From: Myxococcota bacterium
Lineage (GTDB): Bacteria; Myxococcota; Myxococcia; Myxococcales; Myxococcaceae
Assembly: GCA_049322255.1 (NCBI GenBank)
Contig: JBMORE010000019.1
Location: 1-34,228, forward strand
Length of the DNA: 34,228 nt
Direction: 5' to 3'
This document shows positions 6,338 through 34,228 of this stretch, in pieces (the stretch's first letter is position 1; every line of letters starts with the position of its first letter). Below the pieces are notes generated by a model. The model searched no databases. It saw only the letters and a list, made by a program, of their open reading frames with translations, and was not told where the DNA came from. Made by a program: the position numbers and the translations under genes.

Positions 6338-6410
6338 GTCGAAAGTCGATTATCGAGGCTACGTCGACGGCCCGCCAGGACTCCGCCGCCGGATGCAGAC
6401 CCCCGTCGGG

Positions 6411-10045: not shown

Positions 10046-10052
10046 GCCTTCC

Positions 10053-11948: not shown

Positions 11949-12044
11949 GTCGAGCTCCTCTTTGCGAATGAGCCAAGGTGCGGCCGGCCGATGACGCTCC
12001 TGAAGGCTGAATCGGACCACCAGCGCCGAGTATAGTCGCGGTCC

Positions 12045-13971
12045 ATGCGGCTTGCTCCCGTGGGCGTTCTGCTGGTGGCGATCAGCGCGAGCGCCTGGGC
12101 GCAGACGAGCTACATTTGGACGGGCGCGGCGGGCACCTCGAGCTGGACGACTCCCGCCAACTGGAGCCCGAACGGAGTACCGGGCGCGGCCGCGGGTGAC
12201 TCGGCCGCCATCAGCTCCGCGGTGACGGTCGACCTCTCCGGCGCGTTGGCCAACCCGCTCGCCGCGCTCGCTGTGCAGGGTGGAGCGACGCTCGCTCTTT
12301 CCGGCTCGACATGGACTCTGGCGGTGACCGATGGCGCTGGAGCATTCATTGTCGGTGGCGCCAGCCCNNNNNNNNNNNNNNNNNNNNNNNNNNNNNNNNN
12401 NNNNNNNNNNNNNNNNNNNNNNNNNNNNNNNNNNNNNNNNNNNNNNNNNNNNNNNNNNNNNNNNNNNGGAGAACCTCGTCGTCCGCGGGGCGGCTTCCTT
12501 GCAGCTGGGGCCAACCGAAGGCATCGAGCTCTCGGGAGCCTTCACTGTGCCCGCCAACGAGGTGGCGGCGGTCGCTCCCTGGAATGGCTCCGGGGGAGGA
12601 AGCTTGGCGCTGCGGGCAGCGAGCGCGTCCATCGACGGGGCGCTCAGCGCCATTGGAATGGGCTATCGCAGGCAGGTCTACTACCAGCCCGGCGAAGGTC
12701 CAGGGGGCGGTACGAGTGACGACGACACGGGTACCCGCGGGGGTGGAGGTGGCGGGGCGCATGGGGGGGCAGGGGGGAAGGGCTCGCTGGGCCTCGACGG
12801 CGGAGCGACCTATGGTTCCTCGACGGCCCCTTTCGATTTCGGGAGCGCCGGCGGAGAGTCCTTCTACCAAGACACCGCGGGGAACGGGGGCGGCGGCATC
12901 TTCATGGACATTCGCGGCGCGCTCGCCGTGAACGGGCTCCTCGCGACCGGCGGGCAGTCCGGAAACTTATGGAGCGGTGGGGGCGCCGGGGGAAGCATCT
13001 TTGTCACCGCGGGCTCGTTCTCCGGCGCGGGAATCATCGACGCCAGCGGAGGTGCTGGAGGAAATACGGCCGGGCAGGAGGGAGGCGGTGGTGGAGGCGG
13101 GCGCATCGCCATCTACACCAAGCTGTCCACCTTCAACGGCATCGTGAGCTCCTCCGGGGGTGCTGCCCTCAACCCGGGCGCTCAGGGAACCATCGTGTTT
13201 CCCCTGGGAGACTCGCTCATCACCCTCGTGACTCCGCCCAAGGACGCGCAGAGCGATGGCCAGCTCTCTTGGAGCGGACCCACGCTTCCTACCGGCGGCG
13301 TCTACACCGTCTACGTCGACGACGACGCCCACCTGGGCGAAGGCGAGCCGTCTGCGAACCATCGGGAGATAGGCGACCCGATGGTGACCAACTCCACCAC
13401 GAGCACCGCCCTGACAGTCAGCGGCTTGATGCCAGGGAGGCAATACTTCTGGCAGGTGGTGGCCCAGGACCCGAACGGAGCCATCCTCGCCGGCTCTACC
13501 CTCTCTCGCTTCGTCGCCTGCGTACCCGGCTCTTGCGTGGCCGCGGATGGCGGCTGGGTCTACGAAGTCCCCGACGGCGGCGCAGCGGCGCCCCAGTTCC
13601 GCTCCACCCCGGGCGCATTTGCCGAGTGCGGCAAGCCCTACGAATACAGCGAAAGCGGCCGGCCTACCCTCACCGGCGTCGATCCATTCTCGTTCACCGC
13701 GCAAGGCCCCGAGGGCTTCGCCGTCGTGGCCGACACCGGAGAGGTGCTCTGGACACCCTCGAGCGAGCAGGAGGGCGTGCATCGGCTGACGCTCACCGCG
13801 AGTGGCCCGGGCGGGTCCGACTCCCAAAGCTGGTCGGTGGTGGTGGTGTGCAAGACCCAGCGAGACCTGCGCACCGGTTGTGACTGCCAAAGCTCAGGGA
13901 GCCTGCCGTTCGTCGCTGCCATCCTCCTCGCGCTCGGGTTCGCCGTCGCCGGGAAGAAAAGACGTCGATGA
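12045..13971 (+). CDS. Secreted Gly-rich protein with Fn3-like and Ig-like domains and MYXO-CTERM-like tail (interrupted by assembly gap)
   Basis: N-terminal part: signal peptide + YIWTGAAGTSSWTTPANWS. Post-gap part: GGGGGAHGG / GGGAGGSI / GGGGGGRI Gly-rich domain, GLMPGRQYFWQVVA, Ig-like domain, LRTGCDC + TM + KKRRR. The two frames are joined only by a 100-N placeholder. Confidence 0.75.
12368..12467. other. Assembly gap (100 N)
   Basis: Run of exactly 100 N, typical of an unknown-length scaffold gap. Confidence 0.98.
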
Positions 13972-13985
13972 CGAACCGGTGACGC

Positions 13986-15146
13986 TCAGGGTGTCCTCGG
14001 CCCAAGCAGAAAACGCATCGCCCCGGGGAATCGCTGCGCCCAGTAGGTCTCATGGTGGGTGGCTCCGGCCTGGATGACATGGAGCAGATCGACGCCCGAC
14101 TGATAGCCGCCAGTGACGTACGTCTGCGCGAGCTGCGCGGTGTTCGCCATGTCATCGCTCGACGGGCCCGAGTCGCCGCTGTCGATGTAGACACGCAGCG
14201 GCCGGGGCATTCTGTTATTTGCGGTGGTGACGAGACCGATAATCACCTGGTTGTCCCACCACGTCGACGGCGACAGCTCGCCGATGAGCCCGAAGACGGC
14301 GGGGTGCTTGGTGCCGGCGTACGCCGACACCAGCCCGCCCAGCGACGAGCCGATGAGGACCGTAGTCTCGCGACCAGCCAGGGTGCGCAGCTCATTGTCG
14401 ACGCGCGGCTTGAGCTCACTGACCAGCATCGTCAGGTACTGGTCGGCACCGCCCCCGGCGCCGACGTTGCTGTCGCGGGTAGGTGTGTATTCCCAGAGGC
14501 GGTTCGCGGTGTTCGTGACCGCGACGACGAGGGCCTCTTTGAACGCGCCGCTCTCGGCGGCGTCGTCGAACGCCTCGTCGACCCCCCACTCGTTGCCGCT
14601 GAACGCGAGCGTTGGGTCGAAGACGTTCTGGCCATCGTGCATGTAGACGACCGGGTAGTGGGCCCGCGTGTTCTCGAAGTAGCTCGCCGGGTAGTAGACC
14701 CAGATGTCGCGGTCGTTGTTGAGCGTGTTGGAGTGGAACGCGGGCCAGCGCTTCTCGAACCAGCCCTTCACCGTGTTGAAGCGCGGGTAGGCGTCGACGG
14801 TCTCGCCGGGCCGGACTCGATAATTCGGGCCGCGCGACCAGGTGGTGTCGTCGAGGAGCGGCTTCCACTCGGTCTCGGTGACGATCTCGGTGGTGGAGTA
14901 CGTCCACGTGTCGTCGGCGCCCGAGGTGAACGCGACGCCGGTGTTCCAGTTCAGCGGTCCGCCGCTTCCGCGGAGCAAAATGCTGCGCGCACCGGCTGGG
15001 TAGTGCACGCGAATGGTGGTCGCGATTTCGCCGGGGTCCTGACCCGCATCGCTGCCGCCTCCCGCATCGTTGGAGAGCGACGCATCGGGCTGCACCGGGA
15101 CCGGGTTGCAGGCGGCGAGGGCGAGGGCGAATAGGAGCGAGCGCAT
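13986..15146 (-). CDS. Lipoprotein esterase (PF00756-like alpha/beta hydrolase) with N-terminal CBM20-like domain
   Basis: Lipobox LALAAC, IRVHY..LRGSGGPLNW..G N-terminal domain, YPVVYMHDGQN, GSSLGG nucleophile, HHETYW. Confidence 0.9.
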   Translation of the reverse strand: MRSLLFALALAACNPVPVQPDASLSNDAGGGSDAGQDPGEIATTIRVHYPAGARSILLRGSGGPLNWNTGVAFTSGADDTWTYSTTEIVTETEWKPLLDDTTWSRGPNYRVRPGETVDAYPRFNTVKGWFEKRWPAFHSNTLNNDRDIWVYYPASYFENTRAHYPVVYMHDGQNVFDPTLAFSGNEWGVDEAFDDAAESGAFKEALVVAVTNTANRLWEYTPTRDSNVGAGGGADQYLTMLVSELKPRVDNELRTLAGRETTVLIGSSLGGLVSAYAGTKHPAVFGLIGELSPSTWWDNQVIIGLVTTANNRMPRPLRVYIDSGDSGPSSDDMANTAQLAQTYVTGGYQSGVDLLHVIQAGATHHETYWAQRFPGAMRFLLGPRTP

Positions 15147-17009: not shown

Positions 17010-18488
17010 TTAGCGCCTCAAGTCCTCCCGCACGGTGACCGACCTGCCGGCCTCGACCTGAACGGAAATCGTTCTGTCCACGCCCAGCTCGCGGTTGACC
17101 AGGCGCATCGTGTGCGGTCCGGCGGAAAGCGCGAGCGGCGCATCGAGCGGCGTCATCCCCACCCGCTTTCCGTCGACGAACACCTCGGCCCACGGCGCTA
17201 TCAACACCTTCACCTCTCCCGAAAGCACCCTCCGGTTCCGCTCTGGCCGCATCTTCGGGTGGGCCGCCTTCGGTGAATGGGGCTGGGAGGGGGAGGCCGG
17301 CGGCGGAACGAGCGCGGTCGGCGGTGGGGGCGGCGCAGGAGCTGGCTCGACGACCTCGAGCCGTGGTTCTTCTTCACCTGCGCGAGCCCACCACCAGGCT
17401 CCTGCTCCAAGGCAGCCGGCCACCGCCACCGCCGTCGCCACTTGCCAGCGAACGCTTCGCCGCACCACCACTTGTTCGGTCTTGGCCTCGGGTCTGGCCA
17501 GCGGCTGGGTGCCTCTCTTCACGGGGGCCGTTGCCGATGCGCCATTGCCCTGTTCGAGGGCAACATCGGCCAGCGTCGTTTTGAGCCAGCTCTCGGTCAC
17601 CGGCTCGGTGGTTCGAAAGGGGGCAAGCGCGTGCAGCATCGCATCCGCCGATTGGAACCGTTCCTCCCGTTGCCCAGCGAGGGCCTGTTGCAACAGCCCC
17701 TCGAGCGCTTCGGGCGCCTCGGGCCTCGTCGAGCGAAGAGACGGCGCGTTCCCTTCCAAAATCCGTTCGAGAATCTCCGCGGGCGACCTCCCCGTGAAAG
17801 GCGGAGCACCGGCGAGGAGCTCGTGGAGCACGGCGCCGGTGGCATAGAGGTCGGCGCGGGGATCGAGAGGCTCCCCGCGAATCTGCTCGGGCGGGGCGTA
17901 ACCCCAGGTGCCTTTGGCGTGGCGTGTGAGGGCGAAGGAGGCGTCGAGGGCCTTGGAGATGCCGAAGTCCACCAGCTTGACCACCCCCGACCGGGTGAGC
18001 AGGACATTTTCGGGGTTCACGTCGAGGTGGACAATCGGGCGCGGCTGCCGGTCTTCCGAAGTGGCCAGGTGCGCGGCCCGGAGCCCCGCCAAGAGCTGGC
18101 AGATGATGTCCACCGCCACCTGGAGGGGAATCTGGCGGGCGTGCGATTGGAGCAGTCGCCTCAGCCGGCCCAGGGAGAGGCCGTCGACGTACTCCATGGC
18201 CATGAAATAGGTCCTCTCGTCTTGGGCGAGCTCGAACACCTGGGCGACGTTCGGGTGGCTCAGCAGCGCGACCAGCTTCGCTTCTCCCGTGAAGCGTTCG
18301 ACGAAGCCGGCGTCCTCGCTCAGATGCGCCCGGAGCACCTTGAGAGCGACTTCTTTCCGAAACCCGCTCGGCCCGTCGCGATGCGCCAAATAGACGTCAC
18401 CCGAAGCCCCGGCGCCGAGGACCCGGATGATGCGGTACGGACCCAGCTGGCGCGCGTCCCCGCCATTTTTCGTTGGGCGCTCTGTCAC
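17010..18488 (-). CDS. Hanks-type Ser/Thr protein kinase with TM segment and C-terminal PEGA-like domain
   Basis: LGAGASG, VALK, HLDVNPEN, KLVDFG, DLYATG, TM segment, Pro-rich linker, PWAEVFVDG..GMTPL..LSAGPH. Confidence 0.95.
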   Translation of the reverse strand: MTERPTKNGGDARQLGPYRIIRVLGAGASGDVYLAHRDGPSGFRKEVALKVLRAHLSEDAGFVERFTGEAKLVALLSHPNVAQVFELAQDERTYFMAMEYVDGLSLGRLRRLLQSHARQIPLQVAVDIICQLLAGLRAAHLATSEDRQPRPIVHLDVNPENVLLTRSGVVKLVDFGISKALDASFALTRHAKGTWGYAPPEQIRGEPLDPRADLYATGAVLHELLAGAPPFTGRSPAEILERILEGNAPSLRSTRPEAPEALEGLLQQALAGQREERFQSADAMLHALAPFRTTEPVTESWLKTTLADVALEQGNGASATAPVKRGTQPLARPEAKTEQVVVRRSVRWQVATAVAVAGCLGAGAWWWARAGEEEPRLEVVEPAPAPPPPPTALVPPPASPSQPHSPKAAHPKMRPERNRRVLSGEVKVLIAPWAEVFVDGKRVGMTPLDAPLALSAGPHTMRLVNRELGVDRTISVQVEAGRSVTVREDLRR

Positions 18489-19786
18489 TCCTCCAAGCGT
18501 ACCCCGTACTTCGCCGCCAGACGCTGCACGTGGTTACGGTTGATACCCGAGCGACGGGCCGCCTCGGAGAGGTTGCCCTCCGAGGCCTCGAGCAGCTTGG
18601 CGATGTACTCCCGCGCGAAGACGTCGACCAGCCGCTCCTTCGCCTCCTTGAAGGGCAGAAGCTTCTGCTCGGTTTCCACCCACTCTGAGCGGGAGTCGAA
18701 GCCCACGCCGGTCACCACCCGCTCGATGACGTTGCGAAGCTCGCGCACATTCCCCGGCCAGCCGTAGCTGCACAACTTTCCCAAAAGCTCCGCCGACAGC
18801 TCGAGGTCGGCCCGCCCAGCCTGGCGGAGAAACTCCCTGGCGAGCGGGGGAATGTCGTCGGGCCGCTCACGCAGGGGTGGCACTCGGGCCAACACCACCG
18901 CCAACCGGAAGAACAAATCTTTGCGAAAGCGCCCCGCACCGACCTCGGCGCTCAGATTCCGGTGTGTGGCGGCGACGACCCGCACGTCGACTTGGCGGGG
19001 GCGATCCTCTCCCACCTTACGCACGGCGCTGGCATCGAGCACCCGGAGCAACTTCCCCTGCACCTCGAGAGGAAGCTCGCCGATTTCATCGAGAAAGATG
19101 GTTCCTCCGTCGGCTTGAAGGAAGGCGCCTTCGCGATCGCTCACCGCTCCGGTGAAGGCACCCCGGACATGACCAAAGAGCTCACTCTCCGCGAGAGAGG
19201 ACACCAGGGAAGAGCAGTCGACGACCACGAAGGGATGTTGGCACCTGGGAGACCGGTCATGGATGGCCCGGGCAATGACTTCTTTCCCGGTTCCGGTCTC
19301 GCCCCAGAGGAGCACGGTGGAATCGGTCGGGGCGATCTGATTCAGCAACCCGAAGAGCCCCCGCATCTGCGCGCTCTTACCGATTGCCTGCCCGAAGCTG
19401 GGTTGGGCGTCTGGCCGTCCCAGGTCCTGCTCCTCGCACGACAACTCGAGCCAGGTGGTTCCCAGCTCGAGCCGGCCGCTCTCCAGCACCGCTTCCCGGA
19501 TTCGAGCCCCCGCGAGGAAGGTTCCGTTGGTCGAGTCGAGGTCGCGAACCCGAACTCCATCGCTGCGCGCCGCCAGCTCGAGGTGAAAACCCGAGACGGT
19601 GTTGTCCTGAAGCTGGAGGGTCGCCTGCGGGTGCGTTCCCACTGTGGCGGTTCCGGTGAGGGTGAGTGTTTTGCCCGTGTCCGGCCCCGAGAGAACGCGT
19701 ACGTGAAACGACCGAGCACGTAAGGTGTTGGTGGTCGCGTCGAACCGGAGCAGCTGGCTCCGCTCGCGCAGCGGGGTGGTCGCCAT
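18485..19786 (-). CDS. Sigma54-dependent enhancer-binding protein with N-terminal FHA domain
   Basis: FHA ([13 protein letters not shown]), Walker [39 protein letters not shown], Fis-type HTH ([14 protein letters not shown]). Confidence 0.96.
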
Positions 19787-19793
19787 CAGGCCC

Positions 19794-20543
19794 TCACCGA
19801 GAGCTCCAAAGGAGGTAAGCGGCGACTCCGGTGAAGAGGAGAGAGCCGGTGAAGGCGAGGTTTGCCTTCAAGGCGTCACCCTGCGCAGCCGAGGCGTTCT
19901 GGTGGGCGGTGAAAGTGTAGGTCGCCTGGTTGGCCAGCCGCTCATGCTCCTTGGCCGACGCCCCGAAGAAGACGCCGCCTCCGGCCAGCGCGGCCGCCGC
20001 TCCTCCCATCACCCACGGAAGCACGCGAGGGTACGGCGGTGAAGGCTTTTCCTCCGGAGGAGACGGGTTGACGAGTGCATTCGCCAGGGTTTGGTTGCTT
20101 TGAGACGCCGGCGCCTCGGGAGGAGACGCTTCAGATGGAAGGGCTTTGACCACCTCGGCAAAGACGGCGTGAATTTTGGGGCTGGTCATCGGCGGCAGCT
20201 GCACCTGGCGGTCGAGCTGCAGGGCGAGGCCGAAGTACCTCTCCGCCTCGGTGCGGTGCCCCAAGTTGAAATGACAAAGGCCCCGGTACAGCTCGATTTC
20301 GGCGAGGACCTCGAAGCTGGCCGATTCGCGCCCCGCTTGCTCGAGCCGTTCGAGGCAGCGGTCGAACTCGAGCCCGTCGTAATACACTTTCGCCTGCTGG
20401 AGCCACGGTTCACCGGCTGCGACCGGAGCGTCGGCGCCGAACGCCGCGCCGCCAGCGACCATCAGGCCAACCGCCAGAACCCGGGTGAGATGAACCAGGA
20501 GCAACCTCGAGCGCAGGAGAACCTCCGCAATTCTAGCCAGCAA
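19794..20543 (-). CDS. Exported TPR-like protein with C-terminal membrane segments (start uncertain)
   Basis: AKVYYDGLEFDRC...ELYRGLCHFNLG...FGLALQLD helical repeats, Pro-rich linker, two hydrophobic C-terminal segments. The true start may be downstream of 20543. Confidence 0.8.
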   Translation of the reverse strand: MLARIAEVLLRSRLLLVHLTRVLAVGLMVAGGAAFGADAPVAAGEPWLQQAKVYYDGLEFDRCLERLEQAGRESASFEVLAEIELYRGLCHFNLGHRTEAERYFGLALQLDRQVQLPPMTSPKIHAVFAEVVKALPSEASPPEAPASQSNQTLANALVNPSPPEEKPSPPYPRVLPWVMGGAAAALAGGGVFFGASAKEHERLANQATYTFTAHQNASAAQGDALKANLAFTGSLLFTGVAAYLLWSSR

Positions 20544-20582
20544 CGGCGCGGGCCGGCCACAAGAGGCGACCCTCGATCCGCC

Positions 20583-22028
20583 TCACACCAAGACCTCGGA
20601 GATAGGGTTGGTCACCTCGTAGTTCGCGGTTACGCCGCCGCCGGCTCCGGTCACGGGTGTCGACGGCATTCCCAGCTTCGGCAGAGCAACGCCGACGGCG
20701 TGCGCGGCGGTCAAGAGCACCCGGCCTCCTTCGTTGTTGCTTCGATCTCCTCGATTCGAGTGGTAGTTCCCCTTCAGCCGCCCGCCGGCTTTCCCGATGA
20801 ACAGGTAGGGGTGGTAGTCATGGTAGTGCACCGGGCCGCACTCGCTGGTGGCGACCATGAGCAGCTGGTCCAGCAGCGTGCCCGAGCCCTCGGGGATTTC
20901 TTTGAGCTTGCCCACCAGGTACGCCAGGTTCTGCATGACGAACTGGCAATAGCGGCGCATGTCGGGGGTGTCGGCGTGCGAGTAGGCGTCGTGCACCCCT
21001 TCGCCGCTGCTCAGCCCAATCTCCGGGATGGTGCCGCTGCACTGCGTGGGAGTGAGCTCGAAGCAGAACAGCCGCGTGAGGTTGCAGGACAGCGCGTAGA
21101 CCAAGAGGTCTGCCATCACCTTGTTTCGAAGCGTGAGCTGTTCTGCCGACGCGTACGCTTGGGGGACGGGAGCGGAGCTGCACTGGCTGGCCACAGGCAC
21201 CCCTCCGTCTACCTGGGCGAGGGCCGCCACCCGGCCCTCCATCTCGCGCACGCTGTCGAGGTGGGCTTGCAGCCGGAGCTGATCCGCCTTTCCCAAGCTC
21301 TTGGAGAAGGCGCTCAGCTCGGGGGCGACGACGTCGAGCACGCTCTTTCGGAAGCGGTTGGTCACCACCGAAGCAGAGGGCGCTCCCGACGGTTCGGGCG
21401 GAGGAGCGCCCGCCAGCGGAGCGAAGACCATGTTGTAGAGGTCGACCGGCGATTTGTAGAAGGAGCGAAAGCTTCCTCCCCGGTTCCAGGAGCTCGAGCT
21501 CTCGTACAGGTTGCCGACGCGGAGAGACAGATTCAAAAAAGAGTGCGGGGTGTTGAGGGTTGCGGCCCAGCTCTCGTGAATGAGCGCATCGATGCTCGGG
21601 TGAGGCATGCTCTGGTTTCGAAAGCCGCTCGCGCCGGAGTCGAGGACGTACTCCGGGTTGTGTGAGGCGGAGAGCGACAAGCCCCGGGAGGGGATGTGCG
21701 CTGCCGAGCCTGCCGCCGTGTAGGAGTAGTTGGTGAAGACCGTGAGGTGCTCCTTGAAGGCGGCCAGGTGGCTCAGGCCGGCGGGCACCGACCAGGCAGC
21801 CCCCGCACCGCTTCCCGTGGGAAGGAAATCGTCGTTCGCTCCGCCGATGGCCGGCCACCCCAGCCCCCAGAACCAGGTCCCGAAACGCAGCGGGAGGGGA
21901 GCTCCCTGTGCATAGGCGGTGCCGTTTCCGTTGAGGAAGCAGTCGAGCGTCGGCAGGCCCAAGGCGACAGTGAGCCCTCCGAGGCTGCCCTTGAGGAAGC
22001 TGCGTCTGGCGAGTTTTCGCATGGTCAT
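20583..22028 (-). CDS. DUF1552 (HXXSHH family) protein with Tat signal
   Basis: ARRSFLKG...LGLPTLD, PSIDALI, SVLDVV...LGKADQLRLQAHLDSVREME, ALSCNLTR, EGSGTLLD, GKAGGRLKG. Confidence 0.92.
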   Translation of the reverse strand: MTMRKLARRSFLKGSLGGLTVALGLPTLDCFLNGNGTAYAQGAPLPLRFGTWFWGLGWPAIGGANDDFLPTGSGAGAAWSVPAGLSHLAAFKEHLTVFTNYSYTAAGSAAHIPSRGLSLSASHNPEYVLDSGASGFRNQSMPHPSIDALIHESWAATLNTPHSFLNLSLRVGNLYESSSSWNRGGSFRSFYKSPVDLYNMVFAPLAGAPPPEPSGAPSASVVTNRFRKSVLDVVAPELSAFSKSLGKADQLRLQAHLDSVREMEGRVAALAQVDGGVPVASQCSSAPVPQAYASAEQLTLRNKVMADLLVYALSCNLTRLFCFELTPTQCSGTIPEIGLSSGEGVHDAYSHADTPDMRRYCQFVMQNLAYLVGKLKEIPEGSGTLLDQLLMVATSECGPVHYHDYHPYLFIGKAGGRLKGNYHSNRGDRSNNEGGRVLLTAAHAVGVALPKLGMPSTPVTGAGGGVTANYEVTNPISEVLV

Positions 22029-23638
22029 GGCGTCTGCTCGTTGTTGGGGTTGGGGGCGATGAACCGGAAGGAGTCGTGGAGCACGATGGCTCGAACCAGC
22101 TGATCGAAGTCGAAGCGGCGCTCTGCGCTGACACCGTGCGCCGCCAACAAGTCGATGCTCGGGTCGGCGACCTGAGCTCCGGTTCCGTAGGTGCGCACTT
22201 TGCGGAAGAAGCAGGCGGCGAGCCGGTCCTCTTTCTCGAGCAGCACCGTGGCGAGCTGCGGCAGGCTCTCCACCGTCTTTCCGTCGATGGTCGAACGCGC
22301 CTCCACCGGGGCTCCGTCACGGACGGTGGCGTAGCGCCCGAAGGCGTCGAAGCTCTCGTACACCAGACCATAGGGGTCGAACTGCCCGTGGCAGCTGCCA
22401 CAAGGCTGTGTGCCGCCGATTTTTTGGACGCGCTCTGCCACGGTGTCCGAGTCGGAGAGCTCAATCCCGCTGTTCTGAATGAGATCGTTGAGGTTGGCGG
22501 GGGCGTAGATGGTTCGACACAGCAGATGATTGAGGATGAACAGGCCCCGGTGAATGGTCGAGGTGTACTTGCCCCCCGAGTGGGCGACCATCATCGCCCC
22601 GTTGGCCAACAACCCGCTCCGCGCCGGCAGAATCGGCTCCTCTCGCCAGGTCGAGTCATCGGGCGGAGCGGGGAAAATTCCGTAATGCTCCGCAAGCGAC
22701 TTGTTCACCACGGTGCGATCGAATCGGAAGAGCCCTCGCCAGTCGCCGGTTCGGTGAACGGCCGCGGCGGTGCGCTTGAACTCCTGGGTGAAGCTGTTCT
22801 GGAGCGCCTGAAGCTCGTTAGGGAAGTACCCGGCAGTGAGCGACTCGTCGAGGTGGTTCACCCGCCAGATTTCTGACAAGGCATCGGCGAAGAGCTCCTC
22901 TCTGAGCACGGAGTCGACGAGCAGCCGGTCCACCTGCTGGGCGAGGCCCTCGGGGGTCGAGAGCGCACCCGATTCGGCGGCGTCGATGAGCTCGAGATCG
23001 GGGTTACCTCCGAGGAGAAAGAAACCCACCCGGCTCGCGAGCTCCATGTCGGTCAACCGCCCGCCGACGCCGTAGAGCTTCTGGTAGAGAAAGTGAGGGG
23101 AGTTGAGCAGGGCGACCAGTGCGTAGCGCGCTCCCTGGAGAAGCTCCGTCGGCCCTTGCGATGCGGCAATCGCCTTGTAGCCCTCCACCTCGGCGGCGGT
23201 GAGCGTTCGGCGGAAGAGTTTCTTGCCCACGGCCGCGATGGTCGCGCCCAGGCAGGCGTCGTCCATTTGGGCGATGTCGCAAACGAAGAGCTTGTCCGAG
23301 TGGTCGAGGACCAGCTTCTCCGTCGCGGAGAAGTAGCCCTGGAAGTCGATCATCGAATGGGCCGCGGCCAGCCGGTTGGACTCGTACATCCCCAGCGAAG
23401 GCTCGTCGTAACGCAGCTCCACCTGCTCGATGCCGAAGCTTCGAAGGAGTGTTCGGCGGAGGTGTTTCTGGGTGAGGAGGTAGGTCTGCGCGGGCGCCGC
23501 GGGCGCGCTGAGAAAGGAGGCTTCCGGTGTCTGCCCAGAAACGCCAGCACCCAGCTCGCCGATGATTCCCTCGCATCCACCCAGGACGGCGAGGAGCGGC
23601 CACAGAGGCCAGCTGCGTGAGGGGGAGCGCTTGCTCAT
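22025..23638 (-). CDS. DUF1592/DUF1588/DUF1595-type lipoprotein with one CXXCH motif
   Basis: ATG at 23638 follows GGAGG. Lipobox LGGC, LFRRTLT, LLNSPHFLY, ELASRVGFFL..PDLEL, RSGLL, STIHRGLFI, CGSCHGQFDPYG. Confidence 0.92.
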   Translation of the reverse strand: MSKRSPSRSWPLWPLLAVLGGCEGIIGELGAGVSGQTPEASFLSAPAAPAQTYLLTQKHLRRTLLRSFGIEQVELRYDEPSLGMYESNRLAAAHSMIDFQGYFSATEKLVLDHSDKLFVCDIAQMDDACLGATIAAVGKKLFRRTLTAAEVEGYKAIAASQGPTELLQGARYALVALLNSPHFLYQKLYGVGGRLTDMELASRVGFFLLGGNPDLELIDAAESGALSTPEGLAQQVDRLLVDSVLREELFADALSEIWRVNHLDESLTAGYFPNELQALQNSFTQEFKRTAAAVHRTGDWRGLFRFDRTVVNKSLAEHYGIFPAPPDDSTWREEPILPARSGLLANGAMMVAHSGGKYTSTIHRGLFILNHLLCRTIYAPANLNDLIQNSGIELSDSDTVAERVQKIGGTQPCGSCHGQFDPYGLVYESFDAFGRYATVRDGAPVEARSTIDGKTVESLPQLATVLLEKEDRLAACFFRKVRTYGTGAQVADPSIDLLAAHGVSAERRFDFDQLVRAIVLHDSFRFIAPNPNNEQTP

Positions 23639-23687
23639 GGTTCCTCCGAGCTTCGGGGGCCGACCACGCACCCCGTGAGGGCGACAG

Positions 23688-23704
23688 AGCAAGGCGAAGA
23701 CCAG
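23688..23704 (-). promoter_or_regulatory. Candidate sigma54 (-24/-12) promoter of the DUF1592-DUF1552 cluster
   Basis: Minus strand reads CTGGTCTTCGCCTTGCT, i.e. TGG-N8-TTGCT with canonical GG-N10-GC spacing, 49 nt upstream of ATG 23638. Confidence 0.55.
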
Positions 23705-23827
23705 CTCGAAGCGCTCGGAAACACCTGGAATGATTGACGTCGACCGGGACCAAGGCGCGAAGTGGTGGCCCTCCCCCACAGCCCGCTGCGATGTGGGCGT
23801 GGCAGGCGGAGACACGCCGCCGCGCCT

Positions 23828-26184: not shown

Positions 26185-26757
26185 ATGCGGCGTTTCGCGG
26201 CGATGCTGCTTTTCCTCGCGGCTGCCCAGGCCCGGGCGGCCGAGCCTGCGGCGGTGGCGGGTGAGCGGCACGAGCGGGCACCGCGCAGCTACGCCAATTT
26301 GCGCGTGGGGGCCTCCAGCTCCAGCGCCCACCCGGAGCTGTGCCTCGAGGTTTCGCCCCTCGAATTGCTGGGCCTGGAAGCCTGCGGCACCGGCTCGGGC
26401 TTTCTCCACAACGACCCGGCGCCGGAAATTGCCCACTTCCGCAGCAAGTGGAAGCTCACCGACTGGCACACCCAAATCGGCTGGCTGCAGCCGCGCGTGG
26501 GCTTCGGCTTCGCCGAGCTTCAAGTGGGAGAAGACGGGGCGGGCTTCGACTTCGCCGGCACCGGCGTCACCGGGGTGGAAACCGCCGGCCCCGAGCTGGG
26601 CGCCTCGGTGCGCGCGTTGTGGCCGGTGTGGGGCGGCTTCGAGCTACTCGGGGAGCTCAACCTTTCGCTGGGCTACTTCCACCACGCCCCCCGGTTGCTG
26701 CTTCCGCAAAACCGGTGGCAGCCCTCGGCCAGCTTCACCCTGGGCTTCGGCTTCTAG
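26185..26757 (+). CDS. Hypothetical exported protein, probable small beta-barrel
   Basis: ATG at 26185. Signal MRRFAAMLLFLAAAQARA, alternating amphipathic strands, C-terminus FTLGFGF. Confidence 0.75.
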   Translation: MRRFAAMLLFLAAAQARAAEPAAVAGERHERAPRSYANLRVGASSSSAHPELCLEVSPLELLGLEACGTGSGFLHNDPAPEIAHFRSKWKLTDWHTQIGWLQPRVGFGFAELQVGEDGAGFDFAGTGVTGVETAGPELGASVRALWPVWGGFELLGELNLSLGYFHHAPRLLLPQNRWQPSASFTLGFGF

Positions 26758-27045
26758 GCCAGGCCCAGCTCGAGGTCGCCGACCCAACGGAGATGTTCGC
26801 CGAACGCTCCCGTCATGGCGTCGTAGAATTTCCGATCGGCGGTGACGAAGCGCCCTTCGTTCTGAATCGCCAAGACGAGGTAGAGACTGTCGTAGACGGT
26901 TCGACCCACGGCGGTCGCCAAATCAAAGGCGGGCCGCAACAACGGCTCGCTTGAATGTATCTCCAAGGGGAAAACGTCCAACGAGCGTAGGATTCCCTGG
27001 CCTTCTCGCGCGGAGAGCTCCTTCAGGCGCTGCAGCCAGCACGGA
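26754..27045 (-). pseudogene. N-terminally truncated VapC/PIN-domain toxin remnant
   Basis: AFDLATAVGRTVYDSLYLVLA..GRFVTADRKF matches the PIN C-terminal half. I found no N-terminal VxDxS strand, no plausible start and no antitoxin. The 5' boundary is approximate. Confidence 0.75.
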
Positions 27046-27088
27046 TTTGGGCCGCCTGGTGCTCGTGCAATCGAGCTCCGCTTTGCCT

Positions 27089-27117
27089 TTGCCCCCCGGC
27101 GCCGGCCCTCGTATCGT
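27089..27117 (+). promoter_or_regulatory. Sigma70-type promoter for the ECF sigma operon
   Basis: TTGCCC (27089-27094), 17-nt spacer, TATCGT (27112-27117), ending 9 nt before TTG 27127. Confidence 0.55.
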
Positions 27118-27126
27118 CGCGCCGCC

Positions 27127-27744
27127 TTGGCCACCGACGACCTCACCCTCGTCCAGCGCGTCAGAAGCGGCGATCAGCGGGCGTTCAAGCTCTTGGTGGA
27201 GCGCTACCAGCGCAAAATCTATTCGGTCGCCTTGGGGATGCTGCGGGACAAAGAAGAGGCGCTCGACGTCTCTCAGGAGGCCTTCGTCAAGGTCTACAAG
27301 TACCTCGACCACTTCAAGGGCGACGCCTCCTTCTACACCTGGCTCTACCGCATCACGGTCAACGTGTGCATCGATGTGATTCGCAAGCGCGGGGGCAGTG
27401 CCCGCGAGGCGGTGGAGTACGACGACTCGGTGGCCCACGACGCGTCCGAGGCGAACCTGGGCGCCTTGGGCTCCCGCTTGGGCACCAACCCCCAAAAGAG
27501 CGCCCTGCGCCGCGAGCTGGCCGAAAAAATCGAAGAGGCCCTCGCCCAAGTCCCGGAAAAGCACCGCGCCATCTTGTTGCTGCGCGAAATCGAAGGCATG
27601 AGCTACGAAGACCTCGCCCGCACCCTGGACATCCCCAAGGGCACGGTGATGAGCCGCCTGTTCCACGCACGCATCAAGGTTCAAAAAATTCTGAGTGAAT
27701 ACCTCGAGTTGGATGAAGCCAAGAGCGGGGTAGGAAACGAATGA
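27127..27744 (+). CDS. ECF RNA polymerase sigma factor (RpoE-like)
   Basis: GDQRAFKLLVERYQ, DVSQEAFVKVY, FYTWLYRITVN, LREIEGMSYEDLA..GTVMSRLFHAR. Confidence 0.96.
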   Translation: MATDDLTLVQRVRSGDQRAFKLLVERYQRKIYSVALGMLRDKEEALDVSQEAFVKVYKYLDHFKGDASFYTWLYRITVNVCIDVIRKRGGSAREAVEYDDSVAHDASEANLGALGSRLGTNPQKSALRRELAEKIEEALAQVPEKHRAILLLREIEGMSYEDLARTLDIPKGTVMSRLFHARIKVQKILSEYLELDEAKSGVGNE

Positions 27745-27779
27745 AATAACGAAGAAGCCCCCTCGTCTCTGCCCTCGTC

Positions 27780-28382
27780 ATGGCCGCCCATCCTGCTTGT
27801 CAGACCTTCATTCCCCAGCTCTCCCCGTTCATCGACGGAGAGCTCACCCCCGCCGACCGGGTGACGGTCGAGCGTCATCTGGCCGTGTGCAAGGAGTGCA
27901 CGATGCGCACCGCCGACCTACGCGCCGAATCGGGGCTCTTGCGGGTGGGCATGGAGATGCTCGCCGACGAGGTGGACTTCAAAGACTTCTCCCAGAAGGT
28001 GCTGGCCCGCATCACCCCAGACAAGCCGCCCTTCCTCGAGCGGCTCAAGCTTTCCCTCTCGGAAATGTTCCTTTACCAGCGGGGCACGATGCTGACCGCC
28101 CTGGCCACCGCGGCGGTGGTGATGCTGGTGGCTTTGCCCTTCCTCCTGCGTGGGGGCACCCCGGTGGGTTACGCCCAAAAACGGCTCGAGGTGCAGACGG
28201 TGCGCATCGACGACTCGGCGAACGTGGCCCCGGTGGTGATGGAAACCGACAGCGGCGACGCCATCGTCTGGACGGTGGAGCCTGTCCGCGAAAAAGACGA
28301 GCCCAAGAAGAACGAGGGCGATGAGGCGGCCAACGAGGAGCTGGGCATCGAAAAGACCAAACCCAAGGGAGGAGAGCTGTGA
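27780..28382 (+). CDS. Zinc-binding (zf-HC2) transmembrane anti-sigma factor
   Basis: LSPFIDGEL...HLAVCKEC (HxxxCxxC), one TM segment, directly downstream of the ECF sigma gene. Confidence 0.92.
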   Translation: MAAHPACQTFIPQLSPFIDGELTPADRVTVERHLAVCKECTMRTADLRAESGLLRVGMEMLADEVDFKDFSQKVLARITPDKPPFLERLKLSLSEMFLYQRGTMLTALATAAVVMLVALPFLLRGGTPVGYAQKRLEVQTVRIDDSANVAPVVMETDSGDAIVWTVEPVREKDEPKKNEGDEAANEELGIEKTKPKGGEL

Positions 28383-28858
28383 CGTCTTCGCTGGGCCGGG
28401 CGCTCTGCTTGGGAGCGCTGTTCCTACCCCTCGCCGTTCTCGCCGAGGGGCCGAAGGTCGAGGTGCTGGCCGAGGTGGTGCTCGCTTCGATGGAAGGAAA
28501 CCTCGTCGACCCGCCCTCGTTGGCGCCGATGCAAAAGAAGCTCGCCCAGCGCAAGAAGTACGGCTCGCTGCGCCGGCTCTCGGTGCAGAAGGTGGTGGTG
28601 GCCCAAGCGCCCTCGCAGCTCCGGCTCCCCAACGAGAAGGTCGCCACCTTCCAGCTCAAGGAGCTCAAGGAGGGCGTGGCCAAGGTGGAGGTGAAAGTGC
28701 CTCCGCTCTCCACCGTGTACACCCTGGGCCGCGAAGGTTCGCTGTACCAGGCCGCCGGGGAGCACCAAGGCGGCGACTTGTGGCTGGTGCTTTCCTCGTC
28801 CCAGCACGCACAGCCCCGCCGGGCGCCGGCACGACGGGCGCAACAACTAAAGCCATAG
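28379..28858 (+). CDS. Hypothetical exported protein, third gene of the ECF operon
   Basis: GTGA start/stop overlap with the anti-sigma gene, GGAGGAG upstream, signal peptide, typical codon usage. Confidence 0.8.
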   Translation: MTSSLGRALCLGALFLPLAVLAEGPKVEVLAEVVLASMEGNLVDPPSLAPMQKKLAQRKKYGSLRRLSVQKVVVAQAPSQLRLPNEKVATFQLKELKEGVAKVEVKVPPLSTVYTLGREGSLYQAAGEHQGGDLWLVLSSSQHAQPRRAPARRAQQLKP

Positions 28859-28896
28859 TTGACGGGCGGCTTCGTCGTCTACTATGTTGTTAGTTG
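28844..28896 (+). promoter_or_regulatory. Promoter with two palindromic operator boxes upstream of the BlaI-like gene
   Basis: CAACTA-aagcca-TAGTTG (28844-28861) and CTACTA-tgttgt-TAGTTG (28879-28896) overlap TTGACG (28859-28864) and TATGTT (28883-28888). Confidence 0.8.
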
Positions 28897-29301
28897 ATGG
28901 CTCGTCGAAAAAATCTTCCCCTCCTCACGCGCGCCGAAACCGAGGTGATGCGGCTGCTCTGGCAACACGGGCCTTCCACCGTGCAGCAGCTGATGGAGCG
29001 GATGGAGCGCCAGGTGGCGTACACCACCGTGCTCACCATCGTGCGAATTCTCGAGCAGAAGGGCTACATCGCCCACGCGCCGCACCCGCAAGGAGGCCGC
29101 GCTCACCTGTACCGGGCGGCGGTGGAGGACTCAGGCGTTCGACGGCGTCACGTGCGCGACTTGGTCGACCGGCTCTTCGGCGGCCGGGCCGACGGTTTGG
29201 TGGTCGGGCTCATCGAAGACGAGGCGCTCACCCGCGACGAGCTCGAGGGCCTGCGCGCGCGCATCGACCAGGTATTGGGACCGAAGAGGAGCAAGCCATG
29301 A
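28897..29301 (+). CDS. BlaI/MecI/CopY family transcriptional repressor
   Basis: LTRAETEVMRLLWQHGPSTV, AYTTVLTIVRILEQKGY, LVDRLFGG, LTRDELEGL. Confidence 0.95.
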   Translation: MARRKNLPLLTRAETEVMRLLWQHGPSTVQQLMERMERQVAYTTVLTIVRILEQKGYIAHAPHPQGGRAHLYRAAVEDSGVRRRHVRDLVDRLFGGRADGLVVGLIEDEALTRDELEGLRARIDQVLGPKRSKP

Positions 29302-30452
29302 ACCTCGAAGAGTTGGGTTGGGGCGTGCTGTGCGCCTACGTGGCGCTACCGCTACTGAGCTGGTCGGTGCGCGAAGCGACGCAGCCTTTCTCGCGCGCTT
29401 CGGCCCTCACGCTGGTCCTGGCCCTTTCGACCGTTTCGTTCGCCTTGCCGCAGCTGCGCTCGTTGAGCGTGGCGCAGGGGGTTGCGCTGCCGGCTTCGAC
29501 AGCGCCGTTGGTCGCCTCCGCGGTGGCGGCGGTGCAGTCCGCGCCTTACCGGTTGGGCTTCTTTGAAGCGGTAGGGGGCGGATGGCTCTTGTGGGTAGCT
29601 CTCGGCGCGATGGTTGCGCTGGTTCGCCAGCGCCGCGGGGAAAGGCTTTCTGTGCCGCCGCCCTGGGTGCGCGCGCGTGTGGAGGGTTTGGCACACGAGC
29701 TGGGTCTGACGGCTCCTGGTGTGGGGGTCGCCGAGGCAGGCGGCATCCCTCACCTGCGAGGCGTATGGCGGCCCACGGTGGTCGTTCCGCGCGTGGCGCT
29801 GGAGAGCCTCGACGAAAAGGCCGTCGGCTTGGTGTTGCGCCATGAGCTGGTGCATTTGTCTCGCGGCGACCACCTGCGTTTTGCTCTGGCCCGGTGGGTC
29901 GAGGTGCTCTTCCCCTTGTACCCTGCGGCGCGAACCCTCACCCGGCGGCTGCGGTCGGCCTGTGAAGATGCAGTGGACGAGCGGGTATTCGCTCATGCTC
30001 CCCGCGACTATCCCCGCGTGTTGGTCGACATGGCCGAGTTGCACCGCTTCGGCCCGGCGCAGCCTCCTCTGGTGGCGATGGCCGCCACCGAGCTCAACCG
30101 GAGAATCCGCATGCTCACCGTGTCTGCCCGGCGTCCGCCTGCGCAGCCCTGGTTGGCGTTGCTCATCTGCGCCGCCTTCACTGGCTCCGCATTGCTCATC
30201 CCGTCGACCCTCTTGGCGTCCAACGAGGAGAGCCACGACCTGCAGATGATGGCGGGGGAGTCGAGATTGTTGAACCTGACGTCAGACATCTCCCGGATCG
30301 CGGTAGGCAACCCCGACGTGGTCGACGTCGGCATCCACGAGCGCTCGGCGGTGAGCCTCCATGCAAAGGCGGCAGGGAAAACAACCCTCTTGGTGTGGAA
30401 CAAAGCCGGGCAACGGTCGGTCTACCAGCTTTCGGTGGCAGCAAAGAGGTGA
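29298..30452 (+). CDS. BlaR1-like M56 metallopeptidase with C-terminal pilus-secretin N-terminal-like (T2SS-T3SS_pil_N) domain
   Basis: ATGA overlap with the repressor gene, N-terminal TMs, GVWRPTVVVP, LRHELVHLSRGD (HExxH at 29841-29855), EDAVDERV, LNRRIRML, TM, then RIAVGNPDVVDV...AKAAGKTTLLVW. Confidence 0.9.
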   Translation: MNLEELGWGVLCAYVALPLLSWSVREATQPFSRASALTLVLALSTVSFALPQLRSLSVAQGVALPASTAPLVASAVAAVQSAPYRLGFFEAVGGGWLLWVALGAMVALVRQRRGERLSVPPPWVRARVEGLAHELGLTAPGVGVAEAGGIPHLRGVWRPTVVVPRVALESLDEKAVGLVLRHELVHLSRGDHLRFALARWVEVLFPLYPAARTLTRRLRSACEDAVDERVFAHAPRDYPRVLVDMAELHRFGPAQPPLVAMAATELNRRIRMLTVSARRPPAQPWLALLICAAFTGSALLIPSTLLASNEESHDLQMMAGESRLLNLTSDISRIAVGNPDVVDVGIHERSAVSLHAKAAGKTTLLVWNKAGQRSVYQLSVAAKR

Positions 30453-30490: not shown

Positions 30491-31831
30491 GTGACTGCGC
30501 TGGCCGTCCTTCTCGCCTTTGTCTCGACTCAAACCGACGTTCCGCCGGCCGCAGAGCCGCCGTCGACGGAGAGTCCGCCGGCGGCAACCGGCGCGGTGCA
30601 CTTCCGTGGCGCGTTGGAGACGCTCTTTCAGACCTTTCCTTCCGGCACTCCCGGCGGCCAGCAAGACCTCTTCGGCCACGCCACGCCCGTCTTGGCTTTC
30701 GACGGGGGCGAGGACTTCGCCTTCGAGCTGGGGGCCACCTTGCGCCTGCGGGTCTTCGACGACCCTCCCGAGCAGCGCCCCAACGACTACGGGCAGCTCC
30801 TGCGCCGGGAAGACTGGGACCAGACGAGCGACTACGGCCAGCTGATTCGCGAGCTGCGCATCGGTAAGGAGGACTCCGCCTTCTCTCTCTGGGCCGGCCC
30901 GGCACAGGGTTACACCCTAGGGCACGGACATCTGGTGGCGCGTTACTCCAACCGGGAGAACACCGACTACCACCCTGCGGCGGCGGGCCTCTCCTTCACC
31001 ATCGGCCCCACCCAGACCGAGCTCTTCGCCAGCGACTTCTTGGGCGCCCGCCTCTTTGCCGCGGAAGTGGACGCGGACATGGGCCGCATCCTCGGGGAAG
31101 ACCCCGCTGCTTTCGACCGCTACCATCTCTCCTTCTCAGTGGCCCACGATGCCGGCGTCGCCGGCGGCCGCGCGCCCCCGGTGACGCTGATGCATTTCGA
31201 CTTCGACGCCGCGCTCCATCGCGCCGGAGCGGTGCAGGTGTTCGCCTTCGCCGGCATCGGCTCGCGCATCTTCGTGCCCGCGGCCGACTTGGGCGCGGTG
31301 GCCGGTCTTTCGGTCGACGGCGCCACCGGGCCCCTGCGGCTGGGCGGAAAGTTCGAAGCGCGCAAACAAGGCGGAGGCTTCCGTCACGGAATGTTCGGCC
31401 CCGCTTACGAGCTGGCGCGTTTTGCCGGCACCGGCCTCGCTGGCGAACCGGTCGCCTCCGAGCAGCTGCCCGACGCTTTCTCCGGCTACGCCGAATTCCG
31501 AATCGCCAGCGGCGGCGAAGCGGCCCCCCCAGCCGAGCCGTTCGTCTCTTTTTCCGCCGCGGGTGAGTACTTCTCCTTTGGCCGCACCGACGCCGACGCG
31601 GCGCTGGCGATGCGCATCCTCGGGGGAAGGGGGCTGGCCACCCTGCGCGCCTCGGTCATCGGGGTGGGCGTGCGCCCGCGTTACGCCCTCGGAGGCGAGG
31701 GACGTTTTCGCTTCGCCCCCGCCTTCTACGCCGTAGCCGCAGGCGGCACCGTGTTCTTTCCGCAACCCGATTCCACACTCGTACGCGGGGTATACGCCGG
31801 CGCAGGAGTGGGCGTGGATTTCGAGCGCTGA
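30491..31831 (+). CDS. Hypothetical outer-membrane beta-barrel-like protein
   Basis: Hydrophobic N-terminus, Pro-rich linker, many Gly/aromatic alternating strands, ends GAGVGVDFER. Confidence 0.75.
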   Translation: MTALAVLLAFVSTQTDVPPAAEPPSTESPPAATGAVHFRGALETLFQTFPSGTPGGQQDLFGHATPVLAFDGGEDFAFELGATLRLRVFDDPPEQRPNDYGQLLRREDWDQTSDYGQLIRELRIGKEDSAFSLWAGPAQGYTLGHGHLVARYSNRENTDYHPAAAGLSFTIGPTQTELFASDFLGARLFAAEVDADMGRILGEDPAAFDRYHLSFSVAHDAGVAGGRAPPVTLMHFDFDAALHRAGAVQVFAFAGIGSRIFVPAADLGAVAGLSVDGATGPLRLGGKFEARKQGGGFRHGMFGPAYELARFAGTGLAGEPVASEQLPDAFSGYAEFRIASGGEAAPPAEPFVSFSAAGEYFSFGRTDADAALAMRILGGRGLATLRASVIGVGVRPRYALGGEGRFRFAPAFYAVAAGGTVFFPQPDSTLVRGVYAGAGVGVDFER

Positions 31832-34179: not shown

Positions 34180-34228
34180 GGATGGACAGGTGCTTCGCCG
34201 CCGTTGGCGCGCGCCCAAGCGGGAAGCG

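Follow-up and report, generated by a model that had tools for sequence, protein, structure and literature searches.

What does a relative of the staphylococcal penicillin-sensing switch respond to when its antibiotic-binding head has been replaced by a domain of quite another kind? The question is raised by a two-gene locus in the genome of an uncultured myxobacterium (G000; a 4.85-Mb assembly, 99.6% complete), on a contig (C19) that ends at 34228 and whose whole length, 34,228 nucleotides, we call the window. A gene for a BlaI-family repressor, blaI, adjoins one for an M56 membrane protease (P0001; 29298–30452), and the protease carries a head of Pfam family PF13629, the family of the N-terminal domains of Tad-pilus secretins. 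An initial annotation, made from the sequence alone, had recognized this combination and proposed that the pair senses a periplasmic protein partner, such as the assembly state of a pilus or secretin. The first part of that idea is supported, a protein being the natural class of ligand; the link to pilus assembly is not. We picture, instead, an autoregulated BlaIR switch unconnected with beta-lactams, whose exchangeable, sheddable head binds a variable periplasmic protein or strand and is reset by signal peptidase, and we give this picture about an even chance of being right.

A BlaIR-like gene pair

The two genes are coupled as the initial annotation described: the end of blaI overlaps the start of the protease gene in an ATGA at 29298, and the protease has its HELVH motif at residues 182–186. 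In searches of the whole genome, blaI is the only BlaI-family match found and P0001 the only M56 protein. PF05569 covers residues 150–273 of P0001, and H182, E183, H186, D191, E223 and D227 are invariant across 18 aligned members. The AlphaFold2 model of P0001, built from an 18-row alignment (pLDDT 87), comprises membrane helices, the protease, a last helix (285–300), a loose linker (304–307) and a seven-strand sandwich. Its best Foldseek matches are the BlaR1 structures 8ext, 8exs and 8exp, and 8exp is the best structural match by VIA-align (Z 14.4, rmsd 7.5, 238 aligned). A 522-amino acid (aa) open reading frame (ORF) from 28884 was rejected as the true start of the protease because the homologues begin at the Met at 29298; it is a run-on over blaI.

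BlaR1/BlaI and MecR1/MecI of Staphylococcus aureus (8EXP–8EXT; Alexander 2023, PMC9834060) have in common with this pair a repressor and an M56 protease with HExxH/E/D, a four-helix membrane layout, paired palindromic operators, and a signal-peptidase site after the last transmembrane (TM) helix, demonstrated in BlaR1 and predicted in P0001. P0001, unlike them, has a 70-aa PF13629 head rather than a penicillin-binding domain, and no beta-lactamase target. With an adjacent PF03965 repressor, the M56 HExxH/Asp/ExxxD motifs, a BlaR1-like predicted fold and paired operator patterns over its own promoter, the pair is a BlaIR-like system that fails the canonical BlaR1/MecR1 tests. NCBIfam's blaR1_generic model does not match P0001 at E 0.001, and the blaI product falls below the BlaI, MecI and CopY NCBIfam cut-offs. 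A copper repressor of the CopY/TcrY type was rejected for blaI: the TIGR02698 score is 56.1 against a cut-off of 121.95, and the C-terminal Cys motif of CopY/TcrY repressors has no counterpart in a protein without Cys.

Could the pair nonetheless respond to beta-lactams or cell-wall stress, even though it has no penicillin-binding domain? Only the family names, BlaI-family and BlaR1-like, suggest it, and we consider it very improbable indeed. PF00905, the transpeptidase family, does not occur after the last TM of P0001, where PF13629 alone is found, and none of the six PF00905 matches of the genome lies on the window contig. The initial annotation saw no beta-lactamase nearby, and a scan of 31 window proteins or pieces likewise found no beta-lactamase or transpeptidase family. 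Two other systems without the domain, CenIR and PvmSR, are described as leaving beta-lactam resistance unaffected.

Those two belong to a set of non-canonical BlaIR systems (CenIR of C. difficile; PvmSR of P. aeruginosa, 10.64898/2026.08.03.742534; PetRP of Synechocystis, 10.1101/2020.07.31.226407; mycobacterial BlaIR) that resemble the present pair in joining BlaI to an M56 protease without a transpeptidase domain and in being unrelated to beta-lactams. Their heads, as published, are disordered or missing and they regulate other genes, whereas the head of P0001 is folded and of the secretin type, and no target is evident beyond the operon. InterPro lists 254 M56 architectures, about 6% with a transpeptidase domain and 96% near blaI (Kurtz 2026, bioRxiv 10.64898/2026.04.08.717257). 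PF13629 is not among the architectures named in the text of that paper, nor do two supplement files of PMC13492132 contain a match. We found no paper describing M56 with PF13629 in a search that left most subscription papers outside, and the combination may already stand among InterPro's 254. Non-beta-lactam BlaIR systems, then, are already known; new here are the architecture, its operator, its apparent one-operon regulon, and PF13629 as a signalling module.

Table 1. Features of the blaI–M56 locus (window coordinates)
Feature	Position	Strand	Basis or remark
BlaI operator 1 (predicted), palindrome ACTA-N6-TAGT	28846..28859	.	PWM (position weight matrix) 25.3; overlaps upstream gene end, abuts -35
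Sigma70-like promoter, TTGACG ... TATGTT (or TACTAT at 28880-28885)	28859..28888	+	start codon within ~10 nt
BlaI operator 2 (predicted), over -10 element	28881..28894	.	exact ACTA-N6-TAGT; PWM 22.5
BlaI/MecI/CopY-family repressor blaI, 134 aa, no cysteines	28897..29301	+	PF03965 92.9 bits, cut-off 22.6
M56 (BlaR1-type) membrane zinc protease with PF13629 head, 384 aa	29298..30452	+	PF05569 60.2 bits, cut-off 31
Catalytic motifs HELVH (182-186; 29841-29855), D191, ExAVD (E223)	29841..29978	+	alignment
Last TM helix (285-300), then signal-peptidase-like site P302-x-x-L305-x-A307, predicted cut before S308	30150..30218	+	model, motif
PF13629 outer domain (Tad secretin N-domain/CpaI type; VirB9-N-like Ig sandwich), residues 312-380	30231..30437	+	
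446-aa conserved gene, 38 nt downstream; context, not cassette; possible read-through target in G000 only	30491..31831	+	

The PF13629 head

That the outer domain is PF13629 rather than a penicillin-binding domain is clear from the scores (64.3–69.2 bits against a cut-off of 23, E 8.2e-18, profile positions 2–71 of 72). Taken alone, the last 75 aa match PF13629 (E 2.5e-19) and no other Pfam family. The C-terminal residues pointed out in the initial annotation are present, and the limits it gave, 30234–30440, are within a few codons of ours. It had allowed that the domain might prove to be a generic Big_2 one, and on this the evidence divides: neither Big_2 nor any other Pfam family matches the last 75 aa up to E 0.1, but in fold the model ties with S-layer/Big_2 domains (VIA-align Z 9.1, 9.0) as it does with the VirB9 N-domain (Z 8.7, rmsd 2.5, 76 aligned). 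By its predicted fold, then, the head is a generic Ig-like sandwich, S-layer, Big_2 and VirB9-N being tied by Z. RcpA-N is likewise reported to match the VirB9 N-domain (Tassinari 2023, PMC10499894). Sequence matches in the PDB are RcpA (8odn, E 3.9e-5) and a secretin (8jvb), and the Atlas structure match has a TM-score of 0.93.

The domain's best-studied relatives, the Tad secretin N-domains (RcpA-N, CpaC-N, KilC-N) and Caulobacter CpaI (PF13629/IPR032789), share with it the Pfam family, the VirB9-N-like fold and the core residues. The P0001 head differs in being mounted on an inner-membrane protease, outside a Tad locus, without the KilC-specific residues, and in being much less conserved. 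RcpA-N co-purifies with RcpC/CpaB and is modelled to take the C-terminal hairpin of RcpC (Evans 2025, PMC12307814), for which reason a protein partner is the natural ligand class; CpaI bridges CpaB to CpaC in models (bioRxiv 10.1101/2025.11.05.686773, 10.1101/2025.11.06.686991). By analogy with both, the P0001 head would bind a protein as well.

PF13629 matches number three in G000 and from 3 to 11 in each of five other genomes, where they are borne by secretins, free secreted proteins with 1–5 copies, zf-HC2 Ser/Thr kinases, and a VWA protein with an AgmX/PglI tail. To judge from these carriers, PF13629 is a promiscuous mobile module in these bacteria. The kinases (P0039, P0057, L277) combine the same head with a different cytoplasmic output, and other kinases bear four copies. 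MXAN_1370 of M. xanthus carries the domain within a type IVa minor-pilin cluster (PMC13190605). In one genome, genes for an extracytoplasmic function (ECF) sigma factor of Myxococcales family 1, a secreted protein with two PF13629 copies, and a zf-HC2 Ser/Thr kinase with one are consecutive (G325, L281:740–3206, C282), which suggests pairing of PF13629 with PF13629 as a signalling input. In another, a free secreted 107-aa near-copy of the KilC N-domain is encoded directly upstream of kilC (L265:1763–2083, G398:C453; tree support 98), possibly a CpaI-like protein of the Kil locus. In G000 itself, the purS-purQ-purL cluster contains a gene for a divergent member of PF13629 whose C-terminal part is BON/SctD-like (L003:1387–2103, C167); similar proteins in other genomes lie in unrelated contexts (L272–L274, L282).

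Operators and the predicted regulon

The two palindromes at 28846 and 28881 are the sole exact ACTA-N6-TAGT sites in G000, 1.2 being expected genome-wide. When the genome was scored with a PWM built from other genomes, with 40 column shuffles as background, only these two reached 20 or more; the weaker sites (16.8 and lower) are at chance level, five of them scoring at least 15 against a shuffled mean of 7.6. The best of these non-cognate sites (16.8; C166:36932–36949) lies between a nucleotidyltransferase/HEPN-like pair and a lipoprotein-like gene. The sigma70-like site, too, is rare by chance (1 found, 0.1 expected in shuffles), and TTGACG-N18-TACTAT is common to the promoters of G051, G286, G409 and G484.

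Paired palindromes of the ACTA-N6-T(A/C)GT type, usually 35–38 bp apart over the -35 and -10 elements, occur in every homologous promoter examined (G000, G051, G286, G325, G409, G484, and the sisters G232 and G132) except G398, where no blaI is called. The strict pattern was found only at the own promoter in 5/5 other genomes. A relaxed pattern gave own-promoter sites only in G051, G286, G409, G484, G232 and G132, none in G398, and one extra match in G325, at codons 4–8 of an ORF for a Flp/TadE-like pilin (L325:1308–1523, G325:C164). Since the pair's own promoter is the one place where operators stand out, the regulon is predicted to consist of this operon, and in G000 transcription may also run on into the 446-aa gene; BlaI apparently controls nothing else. 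Self-only BlaI regulons with paired sites are described in Clostridium thermocellum, with response genes within the operon (PMC8457756).

A predicted shedding site after the last helix

In the alignment, P302 is nearly invariant after the last TM and is followed by a small-x-Ala motif. A signal-peptidase rule of Pro plus (-3,-1) residues, which was written after the alignment had been seen, holds for 17/22 family members (shuffle 9.7, p 0.001), 21/37 sisters (11.7) and 63/134 other M56s (34.0), against 15/83 control TMs (13.7). S. aureus SpsB cleaves BlaR1 in the linker after the last helix, a cut proposed to turn over unliganded receptor (Alexander 2023, PMC9834060). From the motif and this precedent, signal peptidase probably sheds the P0001 head after the last TM. 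Many distant M56 proteins of other phyla (P0077, P0125, L142, L178 and others) also end their last TM in a conserved Pro-x-x-Val-x-Ala, which suggests that such shedding is general in the M56 family.

If the switch controls only itself, what does it make? It might be the head. Because BlaI represses only the blaI–M56 operon, induction would mass-produce the receptor, and PF13629, once cut off by signal peptidase, would be free in the periplasm to serve either as an adaptor like CpaI or as a decoy for the partners of secretin N-domains. An operon-limited regulon would suit such a device, as would the peptidase-like site, the lack of a cargo gene (convergent genes follow the cassette in G325, G409 and G484), and the predicted 77-aa product, which resembles free secreted PF13629 proteins such as the 107-aa near-copy in G398. 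Yet shedding of BlaR1 was proposed as turnover, the self-only BlaI regulons described so far keep response genes in the operon, the same site precedes unrelated heads in the sisters and other M56s counted above, and drift of the head argues against a single conserved target, and so we think this unlikely. Its bolder form, in which a self-amplifying shedding switch floods the periplasm with free secretin N-domain, as CpaI-like adaptor or CpaB/KilB decoy, and so tunes the Kil predation pilus, is unlikelier still.

A small, patchy family

Proteins that join PF05569 to PF13629 form a family that is real, rare, small and patchy. A full HMMER search listed 150 matches, of which the 76 scanned with Pfam comprise 18 with M56 and PF13629, 45 with M56 and no PF13629, and 13 with PF13629 and no M56 (two of these being kinases). 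P0001 and the 18 make 19 fusion clusters at 50% identity, to which are added a fragment (P0069) and a fusion from a distant M56 lineage (P0108). Where members are named they are Myxococcales. Among 363 genomes of the order, eight matched at 1e-45: six with full fusions, one with a fusion whose head is interrupted by a contig end (G398), and one with a sister bearing another head (G232). The fusion is thus present in at least 7/363 genomes, a floor, this first look being strict; it was absent from large sampled genera in the same search, for example 0/21 and 0/18. A search for related loci with an 8-row alignment reached at least 160 loci, and among the matches listed only L141 is a fusion; word-index protein searches found 6 and 5 proteins, and plasmids gave no match.

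Neighbours of the fusion differ between genera (RluA, an esterase, a kinase and hisS, an ECF operon), and when the neighbourhoods were examined, as the initial annotation had advised, no Tad gene or beta-lactamase was apparent near any of seven fusion loci, the window included. The G398 copy (L058:9823–10603, C19), in an 87% complete genome, is apparently missing the N-terminal part, and neither blaI nor an operator precedes it; it is possibly decayed or misassembled.

How fast the head changes, and what that says of its partner

In sister proteases the place of the head is taken by AgmX/PglI domains, SecDF P1 heads or Cys-rich tails, or is empty; 5/10 sisters tested pass the AgmX/PglI cut-off (NF033768). 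The AgmX/PglI sisters of the Myxococcota have the same protease subfamily and, in G232, the same operator, but a different head. Within PF13629 heads, the fold core (R333, D343, G360, T362, W367, R373) is kept in 75–100% of 24 M56 heads, and it is kept in all PF13629 classes. Ten positions conserved at 91–100% in 11 KilC-type N-domains, which probably lie at the surface, are kept in only 0–29% of the same M56 heads, and P0001 keeps 0/10. At 60–80% identity of the conserved part, the PF13629 head retains about 34% identity on M56 (26 pairs) versus about 65% on KilC (43 pairs); AgmX heads on M56 retain 39%.

The domain tree shows no cluster of M56 heads (25 rows need 21 changes, against a mean of 22.9 in shuffles, of which 78/500 are as low). 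In a quick version of the protease tree PF13629 heads need 3 changes, and a single origin of these heads on M56 may still hold. Identity of protease and head correlate at 0.11 over 231 pairs and at 0.33 over 276 pairs once close relatives are added. Because of that rise, repeated replacement of heads was dropped as an explanation; what the comparisons suggest is fast drift, with replacement possible.

These figures bear on the proposal that the head monitors Tad/Kil assembly: it would report assembly state by binding either CpaB/KilB that has yet to be assembled, at the C-terminal beta-strand, or a domain of the CpaI/CpaC type. G000 does have a Kil-type Tad system, with CpaC/KilC, prepilin peptidase and FHA genes on C53 and CpaB/KilB on C146 (Kil names after Seef 2021, PMC8460266), and the RcpA-N and CpaI partnerships give the proposal a molecular basis. 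Scored with a profile of the family's heads, the KilC N-domain of G000 reaches 84.7 bits, as high as P0001 itself, and the two are 34% identical over 71 aa. Strand addition is largely backbone-mediated and tolerates drift. CpaB occurs in 5/5 other fusion-bearing genomes tested, plus G000; this co-occurrence, however, was rejected as evidence because CpaB is near-universal (42/46 genomes, versus at least 7/363 for the fusion). The stray operator match in a pilin ORF of G325 might be a hint, but it is at chance level (10 control matches). Operator scans found nothing significant at Tad genes, none of which adjoins a fusion locus. The head drifts about twice as far as KilC-N; in P0001 it keeps none of the KilC-specific positions and groups in the domain tree with a second secretin type that is not found in G000 (SH-aLRT 97, on only 70 columns). 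The Tad-sensing idea is, therefore, weakly supported, and we regard it as improbable.

It may be, alternatively, that the head is largely a passenger: the EL1 loop or the membrane part would read the signal, and any small folded periplasmic domain would be tolerated after the last TM. The heads are interchangeable or absent in the subfamily and unclustered in the domain tree, and sensing by EL1 or the membrane part has been proposed for BlaR relatives without a head; PetP, PvmS and mycobacterial BlaR have none. Against a mere passenger, the fold core is conserved, and the survival of the domain across 19 or more divergent clusters implies selection; a second M56 lineage (P0108) carries it too. 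We judge a passenger head unlikely.

How the switch might work

From the genes, domains, catalytic motifs, conserved operators, family distribution and fast head divergence set out above, we infer BlaI binding and cleavage, topology, shedding and ligand class, as follows. The pair would be a portable two-gene switch of the BlaIR type. BlaI dimers on the two operators over the blaI–M56 promoter would keep expression low until a periplasmic cue activated the membrane protease. By analogy with BlaR1, the protease would then cleave itself near A260–M261 and destroy BlaI, and expression of the pair would rise; this would be positive feedback, and no further target is evident. Most likely the cue is the surface of a protein, or an exposed beta-strand, bound at the open edge of the PF13629 sandwich in the way that partners bind RcpA-N and CpaI, and the partner is probably variable and lineage-specific rather than the conserved Tad machine. 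The head would be interchangeable, one of a stock of periplasmic modules available to myxobacteria (PF13629, AgmX/PglI C-terminal domains, SecDF P1 heads and Cys-rich tails). Signal peptidase would probably cut it off behind the last TM and so turn the receptor over, as happens with BlaR1.

Several observations weigh against this scheme. One sister, P0041, ends right after its last TM, and BlaR relatives without heads work, as reported for PvmS (10.64898/2026.08.03.742534) and PetP (10.1101/2020.07.31.226407). Divergence is as rapid in the EL1/TM region as in the head (61% and 57%, respectively, for G409/G484), and the head's fast change may therefore be plain relaxed constraint. The peptidase rule, besides being post hoc, performs weakly on its positive control (87/325 putative signal peptides, shuffle 74.0; p 0.018), and its p-values overstate the case because family members are related. 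A signal-peptide PWM trained on the genome and run beforehand showed no enrichment (2/23 family versus 7/66 controls over threshold), although it is a poor classifier, with only 139/437 positives over threshold. Finally, G000 has two extra relaxed operator matches where the control has 1: C166:36948 lies between genes and C149:8139 within one. Degenerate BlaI operators may exist elsewhere in the genome.

Among BlaR-like proteins, some 94% have no head that binds beta-lactams, and what most of these respond to is unknown (Kurtz 2026, bioRxiv 10.64898/2026.04.08.717257). The present family is unusually tractable: its folded head is 70 aa long and has a homologue whose class of partner is known, its operator pair is defined, and nature has exchanged heads on a single protease framework. 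If the operon is indeed the sole target, one is forced to ask what such a loop produces. Were the shed head the effector, a large class of receptors would be read differently, the variable heads of many BlaR-like proteins being secreted effectors and not just sensors, and myxobacterial contact killing would have an added point of control. Should the head be no more than an exchangeable sensor, the family adds one to the several hundred architectures of M56.

Neighbouring genes

In G000 the cassette lies between a 159-aa gene and the 446-aa gene. Seven of 11 relative loci keep these two genes in order, and five of the seven hold other genes in the slot, different ones in different genera; by gene order, the blaI–M56 cassette occupies an insertion slot. 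The protease gene's codon score, in the lowest 3.4% of 2933 genes, lends weak support to acquisition. No terminator-like site was found in the gap before the 446-aa gene. That gene was rejected as a dedicated target: it is conserved in 16/18 other family genomes, and in L239 and L243 it adjoins the upstream hypothetical 159-aa gene with no cassette between. Its product is unannotated, beta-barrel-like by eye, with a weak ImpL63 match, and belongs to a conserved Myxococcaceae cluster (27127–28858 and 30491–31831) with RpoE (~78–87% identity), a zf-HC2 anti-sigma factor and the secreted 159-aa protein.

In two other genera a different BlaI–M56 pair stands beside the same 446-aa gene (L237:8623–11315, L238:7849–10532); the M56 proteins are 765–768 aa long, have no head recognized by Pfam, and are accompanied by paired operators of their own. 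The pair in L237 also has a small, divergently oriented lipoprotein-like gene beside it. Divergent from rpoE in the window is a short PIN-domain ORF (26754–27146, minus strand; 16.8 bits, under the cut-off) with no evident antitoxin, possibly a remnant. Farther off are a cluster of DUF1592/DUF1552, TPR, sigma54 activator and kinase genes (17010–23815) and a run of genes for secreted proteins (3169–15146, with an assembly gap of Ns near 12370–12470) that include beta-helix+Ig, 4x Big_5 and esterase proteins. Several of these end in Cys-Gly-Cys plus a TM tail, which we take to recall MYXO-CTERM.

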